Shown here piece by piece: positions 51,460-53,010 of a stretch of DNA of 64,000 bases. How positions within the stretch are numbered: position 1 is the stretch's first letter; the number at the start of each line of letters is the position of its first letter. The stretch lies in the sequence record KT184316.1. One strand, given 5' to 3'. Both the position numbers and the translations under genes were made by a program. The DNA is from Enterobacteria phage XTG1. The notes below the pieces were generated by a model. It worked only from the letters and a program-made list of their open reading frames with translations. It ran no database searches and had not been told where the DNA came from.

Positions 51460-53010
51460 TATTGAATCCTTATACAATCCCTTTCCTCACCTTTCCAGAA
51501 TCTTATCAGACCTTAAAAGCAATAACTCTATAGTCTACTCTATAACCTTTTATCAAATCAACTTAAATAAAAGCCAATAACCCCAGAAAGGGGATGGCCC
51601 ATTTAAACGCTCTATAAAGCTCTATAACAGCCTTATCAACTTAACTTAAGGGATTGCATTAACCAGCCTTAAAAAGCTCTTTACAAGGCTTTATAGAGGC
51701 TTAAAAGAATCTTATAAGGTTATAAGCTTTATTATCTCGTTAGCTATCTTGTGAATATCTAAAAAGGGCTTGTTAGTGTCTTAAAAGTATGTTATAGGGG
51801 CTTAAAAGTTACTTCAAAGTTACGTAAAAGAAGCTATAAAGTTACGTAAATGCTAGCCCCCTTAACAATTTCTTAACAATCCCTACATAGTTATGCTTGT
51901 TAGAGACTTGTTAGCCCCTTGTTAAATCTCTGTTAAAACCACGTAAAAGCCTTGTAAGAACCTTTGACATAGCCTTTAAAACCCCTGTAAAGCCTTATAA
52001 AGAGGTATCTGTACAGTTGGGGTGTAATTACTAGGAAGAGGCTTAAAAGAGCTTACAAGGAGCTATAGAGAGCTTTTAAAAGGTATGTTTAGAGAATCAC
52101 TAAGAGGGAAAGGGAACGATAAGAAAAGAGTAGTGACCATGTTAATAGCTTGTTAAAAAGATTAAACACTTGTTAGGAACTTGTTAATTATCTTAACAAA
52201 ATAACTCTTAAAAATTAACTTGTTAGCTCTTGTTAGTCATCTGTTAAGAGACTATAAAGACCATGTATCGTCTGTTAAGAAACTGTTAAGCCCTTGTTAG
52301 TTATGTTAAGAATCTGTTAAGACCTCTGAAGAGATGTTAAGAGATTGAGAGAGTTGTTAAGAGATTGTTAAGGATATTTTAAAATTCTGCAAAGTACTTG
52401 TAAGGGAGCTGTTAAGGGCTACCAAGCAGATATACATCTTCTACAGATATTTTTCAGTTCCTTCAAAGACCCTAAAAAATGACTTGATAGTCCTATTTTT
52501 ATAAAAATTTTAAAAATCTGAATAATTACCTATACAGTCTTTCTAAAATACAGGTAATAACAGGCTTATAAGATACCTTGTTAGTACCGTGTTAGACCTT
52601 GTGAGATAAGGTCTGTAAAGATATTCCTGTTAAGTTTGTTAAAACAGTCTATATAGAGGCTTAGTAGCACCTAGTGAACACCTATAGAGAGTATCATAGC
52701 TGACATAGAGATTAAGAGGTGTATAGGAGCTTCTAAGAGAGTGTAGAGAGATGGTTAAGGTGATTGTATAGGTTGTTAAGAAGGTTTGTTAGAAGAGTGT
52801 TTAGAGGGCTATTTAGAAGGGCTATACAGAGGGCTATTAAGACCACTAGATAGTTACTAAGATACTATATAGTACTATATAACTATATAGAGAGTAAGAT
52901 TAAGAAGGTTGTTAAGAAGGGTAGATATTTTATTCACATATGATGGTGACCCAGAGGTTGGGACAACCGATAAAATTTTATAAAAAATATAAATTTCGTA
53001 AATTTTACTC
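51460..53010. repeat. ORF-free repeat-dense region with phased (C/T)TGTTA(A/G) heptamers and other short repeats
   Basis: No ORF of 60 aa or more in any frame over ~1.55 kb; about 30 heptamers in both orientations, often at 10-11 bp spacing (e.g. 52290-52380); extra families GGGCTAT and ACTATATA (52800-52890); bounded by convergent terminators. Confidence 0.7.

Follow-up and report, generated by a model that had tools for sequence, protein, structure and literature searches.

The 64,000-nucleotide stretch of Enterobacteria phage XTG1 analysed here (KT184316.1), hereafter the window, contains a gap of approximately 1.6 kb (51392-53048) that lacks credible open reading frames (ORFs) and is occupied by a dense array of short, oriented repeats, among which the heptamers TGTTAAG and TTGTTAG predominate. 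As judged from homology to the terminal duplications of related phages, this gap is almost certainly the concatemer junction of an Ounavirinae (Felix O1-like) phage, holding the physical ends of the genome. The ends can be placed to within a few bases, and between them lies a non-coding direct terminal repeat (DTR) bounded by inverted sequence modules, with the array extending over the DTR and into the DNA on both sides of it. The terminal repeat of this genus is already known, while no earlier description of the surrounding array was found. The identity of the element is thus ordinary and known in outline; its architecture is unusually elaborate and conserved.

Genome ends and direct terminal repeat

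The phage belongs to the genus Felixounavirus, and 255 phage records match the gap, the best of them at 92% identity. Many of these matches abut the end of a record, at least eight independent records begin or stop at one and the same nucleotide inside the array, and the terminal-repeat segment is held twice in approximately 31 records. Exact terminal duplications are found in the relatives E9 (580 bp; positions 1-580 are identical to 87118-87697), NBSal004 (694 bp) and M7 (444 bp). Those of E9 and NBSal004, for which both ends were compared, start with GCCCCCTTAACA... and end with ...TGTTAAGGGCTACC (...GTTAAGGGCTACC), and their ends map to positions 51856 and 52423 of the window, delimiting the following segment:

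51856-52423, plus strand: DTR equivalent, 568 bp, wholly non-coding, single copy, identified by homology to the terminal duplications in relatives

This segment is filled with TTGTTAG and TGTTAAG heptamers, 20 in the forward and three in the reverse orientation. Its presence as one copy in the window would follow from the sequence representing a concatemer junction, with the repeat carried by both ends of the virion DNA.

Published data on related phages point to the same element. Short terminal repeats were inferred in the Felix O1 genome paper (PMC3185647), and direct terminal repeats of 608 bp were mapped in UAB_Phi87 by Bal31 digestion and run-off sequencing (PMC4837284). PhageTerm returned a 581-bp DTR for Pr103Blw (PMC8303462) and a 613-bp DTR for Ro111lw (PMC6454146), and the TerL proteins of UAB_Phi87 and Felix O1 have been placed in a Felix O1-like DTR cluster (PMC4837284). 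The gene for TerL lies outside the 64-kb window. Together with the 444-bp repeat of M7, the repeats of UAB_Phi87, Pr103Blw and Ro111lw represent the same element at matching positions. The published reports on Felix O1-like DTRs give length and end type only (PMC4837284, PMC8303462, PMC6454146), and no earlier account of the gap without ORFs, of its phased array, of the inverted repeat at the boundaries or of their conservation across genera was found in a literature coverage that was incomplete and may have passed over one.

The gap was aligned across a panel of 11 genomes of the genera Felixounavirus, Suspvirus and Mooglevirus. The boundary motifs described below define DTRs of 568-659 bp across the panel and predict lengths of 614 bp for UAB_Phi87 and 579-580 bp for AYO145A and bumzen, while the range among close relatives is 568-694 bp. 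The repeat of NBSal004 (MN994503.1) reaches 694 bp because part of its interior is duplicated in tandem at an offset of 49 bp, and although this record has the repeat at both ends, it carries the label circular.

Ends of the T7 type, with a short DTR, carry the same sequence at both termini, which is the case in E9, NBSal004 and M7. That the ends are also fixed and non-permuted is indicated by the shared record ends, the Bal31 and run-off data and the DTR calls of PhageTerm. Three points speak against this assignment. The Felixounavirus SEP1 dissents, having been reported as a pac-type headful phage from PhageTerm analysis (PMC13431587). Furthermore, sources disagree by 2-6 nt on the cut positions (614 versus 608 bp for UAB_Phi87; M7 versus E9-type ends), and the window holds one copy of the repeat only, its own ends being deduced by homology. 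The SEP1 report (PMC13431587) stands in conflict with four others, and the experimental mapping together with the exact duplications carries more weight. A genome terminus was among the roles that an earlier, sequence-only reading of the region had listed, and the DTR with both of its cut sites, as established from the terminal duplications of relatives and the published mapping, indeed falls within it.

An aberrant arrangement was observed in the partial genome of typing phage 15 (KP869113.1, E. coli O157), where the terminal-repeat segment extends over approximately 950 bp in three blast pieces and is adjoined by tRNA genes, unlike the synteny in every other genome examined. This record is likely misassembled at the repeat, and as such was left out of the genome comparison.

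Inverted modules at the repeat boundaries

Each DTR boundary is marked by a sequence module in which the presumptive cut (indicated by ^) is embedded:

51840-51895, plus strand: left boundary module, ...AAATGCTA^GCCCCC-TTAACA-N5-TTAACA...CCTACATAGTTATG, cut at approximately 51855/51856, heptamers reversed
52397-52438, plus strand: right boundary module, ...TGTTAAGGGCTACC^AAGCAGATATACA, cut at approximately 52423/52424, an inverted copy of the left module

The left boundary, which reads ...GCTA^GCCCCCTTAACA followed by more reversed TTAACA units and CCTACATAGTTATG, is the best 50-bp bin of the gap with a conservation of 0.94, and records of the genus Kolesnikvirus start at the homologous position. 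The right module, TGTTAAGGGCTACC^AAGCAGATATACA, is invariant across Felixounavirus, Suspvirus and Mooglevirus, and its AAGCAGATATACA part is present as well in the Erwinia phage phiEa21-4, a Kolesnikvirus. When both sites are read from the outside inward, on the strand with its 5′ end at the terminus, they follow the common pattern TGCT(A/T)^G...(TA)GCCC(CC)TTAACA, and the DTR is therefore bounded by an inverted repeat. At the left end it is the few reversed heptamers of the array that create this symmetry. The two inverted TAGCC(C)...TTAACA modules constitute the most conserved part of the gap across the four genera. The left boundary of XTG1 (51867-51868) carries two reversed TTAACA units where three are found in 10/10 aligned relatives, one 11-bp unit being missing.

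Anatomy of the array

The motif YTGTTAR occurs 27 times in 51460-53010, amounting to 17.4 copies per kb as compared to 1.1 per kb in the other 62 kb of the window. The abundance given in the sequence-only reading, roughly 30 heptamers, thus stands, whereas its statement that they lie in both orientations does not, as 24 copies are found on the plus strand, where 1.0 ± 1.0 would be expected from first-order Markov simulations of the region, and three on the minus strand. Two of these three reversed copies are located exactly at the left boundary of the terminal repeat. Successive TGTTAR copies are 10-11 bp apart in approximately half of the cases, in agreement with the spacing noted earlier; the string that had been quoted as an example of it exists, at 52271-52325 rather than at 52290-52380. 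Base autocorrelation, scored against 200 control stretches from the same window, peaks at lags 11 (z = 11.2) and 10 (z = 8.5), with harmonics at 21-22, 32 and 43, giving a period of approximately 10.7 bp. In sliding windows the periodicity spans approximately 51450-52950, the period lengthening from about 10 bp at the left through 11 bp in mid-gap to 12 bp at the right, and nowhere else in the 64 kb does periodicity come near this level.

Tiling of the region by expectation-maximization and dynamic programming yielded approximately 136 head-to-tail tiles, 73 of them well-formed, with the consensus s-C-T-(W)4-A-G-r and C2, T3, A8 and G9 as the informative positions. The frame CT-N4-AG, the conserved ends of which are palindromic, occurs 58 times against an expectation of 11.1 ± 3.2. 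TGTTAAG and TTGTTAG are its commonest fillings, and the heptamer is as such one sub-type of a more general unit. Further repeat families that had been noted nearby were recovered, namely GGGCTAT (three copies), ACTATATA (three copies and one reversed) and CTTAAAAG (five copies). Outside the boundary modules, the following segments can be distinguished:

51450-51855, plus strand: left-flank array, sub-terminal DNA of the right genome end, from periodicity and tiling
52085-52140, plus strand: purine-rich, non-periodic island within the DTR, where tile scores fall; conservation 0.90-0.91
52424-52560, plus strand: A+T-rich conserved segment with few canonical units, just inside the left end of the unique DNA; conservation 0.86-0.91, tile scores mostly low
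52560-52920, plus strand: right-flank array, sub-terminal DNA of the left genome end, from periodicity and tiling

The two flanks differ in both their units and their spacers. Left-flank units follow a 10-11 bp period and are of the CTTAAAAG, CTATAAAG and CTCTATAG type, with TGTTAAG nearly absent and C-rich, G-poor spacers (base composition C 0.19, G 0.14). Right-flank units follow an 11-12 bp period and comprise TGTTAG/TGTTAAG, CTATAGAG and the GGGCTAT and ACTATATA copies, three of each, between G-rich, C-poor spacers (C 0.10, G 0.25). The flip in strand composition reported from the sequence is accordingly real, with a GC skew of -0.32 at 51450-51749 and +0.52 at 52650-52949, and is explained by the convergent orientation of the genes. 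The A+T-rich segment at 52424-52560, within which a peak of predicted curvature lies near 52500, is a candidate terminase recognition element. The three GGGCTAT copies of the right flank (52806-52844; ...AGAGGGCTAT..., ...AGAAGGGCTAT...) resemble the right cut-site module TGTTAAGGGCTACC and might be decoy or ancestral cut sites.

A replication origin, likewise among the roles proposed at first, is brought to mind by the A+T-richness of the gap (G+C content 0.34) and by its many direct repeats, which are loosely iteron-like and might bind an initiator as in plasmids and phage lambda. In T7, moreover, the promoters phiOL and phiOR adjoin the terminal arrays according to the annotation, and these promoters act as secondary origins. 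However, DnaA boxes are not enriched (2.7 per kb versus 3.0 per kb elsewhere in the window) and no origin signal was found in the gap, no initiator-like family is represented among six neighbouring proteins, and known iteron sets do not resemble the approximately 136 units of 11 bp, the layout of which centres on the two cut sites. The switch in GC skew is already accounted for by the convergent genes. That the region is or contains an origin is therefore improbable.

The units could also be sites for host nucleoid proteins such as IHF, Fis or H-NS, or could act through intrinsic curvature. IHF assists the lambda terminase at cos, and IHF-like sites with one mismatch are modestly enriched in the gap (6.0 per kb versus 2.0 per kb, with 3.0 ± 1.9 expected). 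Predicted curvature, computed with a Bolshoy-Trifonov wedge model and of use for ranking only, peaks just outside both boundaries at approximately 51832 and 52500. The exact IHF consensus is absent, however, as is the pho-box motif, and there is no enrichment of DnaA boxes. The mean predicted curvature places the array merely in the top 7% or so of 1.5-kb windows, and curvature was rejected as the main explanation on account of this modest value. Phages that infect Escherichia, Salmonella, Citrobacter and Erwinia furthermore all retain the heptamer, for which a phage-encoded reader would account at least equally well, and a host nucleoid protein or curvature as the basis of the array appears highly improbable. 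Among other candidate motifs, a resemblance to the pho box (CTGTCATAWAWCTGTCAY) that was noted by eye was discarded, with no hits in the array at up to four mismatches, Chi sites are absent from the array, and OmpR-like tandem sites are weakly enriched.

Conservation across genera and prediction of the ends

Gap identity between genera is 0.77-0.81 in the panel alignment, as compared to 0.61-0.65 for two flanking coding sequences, while a control in which 110-bp blocks were permuted aligns at 0.59-0.60. Repetitiveness thus inflates the alignment identity, which counts against taking the figure at face value, and since block-permuted repeats alone align at approximately 0.6, we suggest with reservation only that the gap may be more conserved than its neighbouring genes. 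Its positional orthology is real, and the free drift among close relatives that would have spoken against a function was not seen, the gap being positionally conserved across genera. Within well-formed units, conservation reaches 0.90-0.91 at the core positions T3 and A8, as compared to 0.73-0.77 in the spacers. The lengths of unique indels include 11 bp (eight cases) and 22 bp (five cases), as well as runs of 21-26 and 32-34 bp, and such indels explain some of the spread in DTR length (568-694 bp). The least conserved bins of the gap fall to 0.66-0.70. The stretches with the right-flank GGGCTAT copies (52806-52844) and with GGGCTATTTAGCCC (51403-51416) are among the least conserved bins, at 0.69.

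The more distant phage phiEa21-4 shows no blastn-level similarity to the gap, yet has a syntenic gap of 1.44 kb with lag-11 periodicity. It contains 11 copies of TGTTAAG, where 0.28 would be expected, and among 7-mers this heptamer ranks first or second by enrichment in the arrays of both Felixounavirus and phiEa21-4, which share the same segmental layout. The left flank in phiEa21-4 is C-rich with CTTCTAAG units, the right flank is G-rich, and both boundary modules are recognisable, as ...GGTTAGCCACTTTTACA... and ...TTTTGCAAAG...AAGCAGATATACA. From motif conservation alone, and before any comparison with record ends, the phiEa21-4 ends were placed at gap positions of approximately 557 and 1003. 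Independent Kolesnikvirus records start at 556-558 and end at 994-997. The exact 444-bp repeat of M7 similarly ends at positions homologous to this prediction. The layout of flank array, cut, heptamer-filled repeat, cut, A+T-rich segment and flank array is common to all four Ounavirinae genera examined, and the gap measures approximately 1.4-1.8 kb in each of them.

These comparisons also bear on a reading in which the boundary modules alone matter and the remainder is a by-product of slippage or unequal crossover in DNA that is kept non-coding, which might at most supply homology or spacing when concatemers form. In favour of this reading, indels of whole-unit size are frequent, close relatives differ in DTR length (568-694 bp), conservation drops to 0.66-0.70 in some bins, and the block-permuted controls already reach approximately 0.6. 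Slippage of this kind would not be expected to leave TGTTAAG dominant, with the same layout and strand asymmetry, in a genus without blastn-level similarity, nor cores that are more conserved than spacers, an orientation bias of 24:3 and a gap size held at approximately 1.4-1.8 kb. We consequently attach little probability to it.

Comparison with known terminal structures

The closest analogue of the junction among those tested is the terminal repeat of phage T7 with its SRL and SRR arrays. As in XTG1, T7 has a short exact DTR at the concatemer junction, with heptamers in a single orientation, about one helical turn apart, in both the repeat and its flanks. Checking of the T7 sequence showed CCTAAAG, CTTAAAG and CATAAAG heptamers in one orientation with a period of 12-13 bp (autocorrelation of 0.38 at lag 13). 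A single-orientation array of this kind is also what the XTG1 DTR and both of its flanks display, with 24 heptamers against three. The T7 motifs resemble the CTTAAAAG, CTATAAAG and CTGTAAAG sub-types found here, a likeness of motif that does not imply homology. T7 differs in holding approximately 16 TAAAG-type units in the first 360 bp or so at the left end, and more at the right, as compared to approximately 136 tiles over 1.5 kb, in its period of 12-13 bp versus 10.7 bp (near the helical repeat) and in its repeat of 160 bp versus 568 bp of wholly non-coding DNA. It is a podovirus with its own RNA polymerase and a recognised small terminase, whereas XTG1 is an unrelated myovirus of a group in which no small terminase has been recognised in Felix O1. 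The inverted repeat at the boundaries and the opposite strand skew of the flanks are, set against T7, features of the Ounavirinae version. The T7 repeat boundary ...CCCTATCTGTTACAG... furthermore recalls the ATCTGTTAAG units of XTG1; ATCTGTT is a pause signal of T7 RNA polymerase at the concatemer junction and may provide a lead. A literature search for a published function of T7-type terminal arrays (CCTAAAG, pacB/concatemer junction) found none.

Phage T5 offers a second parallel, and with it the possibility that the array acts in DNA entry or end protection rather than packaging, the phased repeats, which would be the first or last DNA to travel through the tail, binding an ejected or early phage protein or a host protein that pauses or regulates ejection or shields the ends from exonucleases. 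In T5, an ORF-free, repeat-rich stretch of 1.78 kb at the inner boundary of the terminal repeat is annotated as the injection stop signal, and is comparable to the XTG1 gap in its size range (approximately 1.5-1.8 kb) and in spanning a terminal-repeat boundary. The arrays of XTG1 would lie at both physical ends, and the homologue of the abutting gene, Felix O1 ORF23, has been reported in virions (PMC3185647). The T5 region, however, consists of a 14-mer present seven times without any 10-11 bp periodicity, and its terminal repeat measures 10 kb and carries genes; the injection stop signal was rejected as the same construction, the likeness being positional only. The 82-amino acid virion protein is acidic and bears no DNA-binding signature, and stepwise ejection is not on record for Felix O1-like myoviruses. 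A role in entry or protection is thus unlikely, if less so than an origin.

Direct repeats of 10-11 bp that are bound head-to-tail by a protein polymerising on one face of the DNA are also exemplified by ParR on the 11-bp iterons of parC and by OmpR and PhoB on tandem 7+4-bp boxes. These systems model how the array might be read, with the differences that the copy number in XTG1 is ten-fold higher and that partition or response-regulator genes are absent among the six neighbours. A ParR/parC-type centromere was rejected for want of such partition genes, even though the 10-11 bp periodicity is present. In the Twort-like phages of Staphylococcus (Kayvirus), short inverted repeats at the terminal-repeat boundaries are thought to guide the terminase. 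Their terminal repeats extend over several kb and contain genes, in contrast to the short, non-coding DTR found here, and we know of no helical-period array in them.

A possible mechanism of terminus recognition

In phages with T7-type ends, the terminase nicks opposite strands at the two boundaries, and strand-displacement synthesis duplicates the repeat. Each concatemer junction contains one repeat copy, cleavage by the terminase is site-specific, and a second copy is synthesised in the course of maturation (PMC10438801). By analogy, the XTG1 terminase would nick opposite strands at the 51856 and 52423 boundaries, and strand displacement would duplicate the repeat for every packaged genome. 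The inverted TAGCC(C)-TTAACA modules would suit a two-fold symmetric pair of nicks.

The oriented units of approximately 10.7 bp, of the TGTTAAG core type, which cover the DTR and approximately 400 bp on each side, may represent phased sites for a sequence-specific protein. This is suggested by their single orientation, their spacing of one helical turn, the higher conservation of cores than of spacers and the retention of the same heptamer in diverged genera, and for these reasons the protein-nucleated nucleoprotein array that the sequence-only reading had envisaged is plausible. Such a reader would take the place of a small terminase, a subunit not known to have been recognised in this subfamily. 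It would load cooperatively along one face of the helix, and once loaded would mark the junction and give it polarity. The differences between the flanks in unit type and strand composition could allow the 'end of genome' side to be told from the 'start of genome' side. No small terminase has been recognised in Felix O1 (PMC3185647), and as Felix O1-type phages lack a recognisable one, a recognition protein that recruits the terminase would be the most economical candidate.

Taken as a whole, a concatemer junction with a DTR, in which the array serves as a phased platform for terminus recognition and packaging, is the interpretation that we favour with moderate confidence. The packaging-initiation site put forward earlier holds in the general sense, given that the terminase must act here, while the specific part played by the array is one that we infer; that the array binds a protein and acts as a packaging platform is a serious possibility, which we would put a little short of even. 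A more far-reaching version, tentative and on balance rather unlikely, is that the array is a polymerisation track for a DNA-binding protein conserved in the subfamily, which would read TGTTAAG once per helical turn and form a polar filament over the junction. As part of the same proposal, the flip in orientation at the left boundary and the flank types would direct nicking and packaging by TerL without a conventional small subunit.

Several findings weigh against a platform for packaging. Neither the six neighbouring proteins nor the three proteins encoded upstream of TerL in phiEa21-4 match a DNA-binding or small-terminase family in PHROGs or Pfam; these scans returned families of unknown function only, with gp43 assigned to DUF7217. 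The approximately 136 units, moreover, far exceed the need of one terminase ring. To our knowledge the function of the T7 array is itself unsettled, so that the T7 analogy brings no mechanism.

Borders of the gap, flanking genes and other features of the window

The ORF-free region between convergent terminators that had been noted from the sequence was confirmed by the ORF list and a terminator scan, which located hairpins at 51430-51449 and 53034-53020. No ORF of at least 30 amino acids is present in 51392-52732, and the sole exceptions in the gap are two short chance ORFs at its right edge. Its borders are formed by the following features:

51143-51391, plus strand: last gene of the right genome arm, encoding an 82-amino acid acidic protein homologous to Felix O1 ORF23 (ORF list and translation)
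51430-51449, plus strand: rho-independent terminator ending the rightward transcription unit (terminator scan)
53020-53034, minus strand: rho-independent terminator ending the leftward transcription unit (terminator scan)
53049-53672, minus strand: gene for a 207-amino acid protein, the first on the left genome arm, transcribed towards the genome end (ORF list)

On the linear virion chromosome, these 'convergent' units are the two arms of the genome, each transcribed outward to its own end. The 82-amino acid protein matches PHROG 4559 and the 207-amino acid protein PHROG 4330, both of them families of unknown function, and neither contains a Pfam domain. The gene for the former is found in the same synteny in all panel genomes, and Felix O1 ORF23 is listed among the virion-detected proteins in Felix O1 proteomics (PMC3185647). 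The left terminator has also been annotated by the depositors of AYO145A and Mordin, and the right one in the AYO145A record. A short distance upstream of the stem of the left terminator, the sequence GGGCTATTTAGCCC (51403-51416) makes up a palindrome that resembles a hairpin.

A long, conserved region without ORFs, with weak promoter-like matches inside, might encode a non-coding RNA. However, an Rfam covariance-model scan of 50500-54000 was without a match even at E ≤ 1, both bordering terminators are directed into the gap, and a sigma-70 promoter scan returned 13 sites where 10.8 are expected, which is the level of chance. Unit-sized indels and 11-bp periodicity are the pattern of DNA sites rather than of an RNA fold, and the probability of a non-coding RNA is very low.

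After the terminal array, the next most periodic spots in the window are two intergenic stretches upstream of minus-strand genes, at 7060-7441 and 8488-8876. In each of them, a G-free array of short period (CCATACCTTACCTTACCACACCTAACC...) is present twice, followed both times by units like those of the terminal array (CCTTGTTAAAAGACCC, TTTAAAGACC, TTTTAAAAAGG) and then by a hairpin. The tetranucleotide GATC is absent from positions 1-64000, where approximately 231 occurrences would be expected from a second-order Markov model, while the next most avoided palindromes are GGCC (0.52), CCGG (0.54) and CTAG (0.59). This looks like total avoidance of Dam/MboI-type sites.

Implications for Felix O1-like phages

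Salmonella typing, biocontrol and phage therapy all make wide use of Felix O1-like phages, most of whose database records have been opened at arbitrary positions with the terminal repeat omitted. With the two conserved boundary motifs, the true ends of any Ounavirinae genome could be located from its sequence alone. In phage engineering, it should not be assumed that insertions into the 1.6 kb of gene-free DNA are neutral. The once-per-turn heptamer array, for example as (CTGTTAAGNNN)n, provides a concrete DNA bait for the recognition protein, and end recognition in a phage without a recognised small terminase thereby becomes directly testable. The array may furthermore shed light on the long-unexplained repeat arrays at the ends of T7, and a polar filament over the junction, if true, would represent a new way of specifying the ends of a phage genome.

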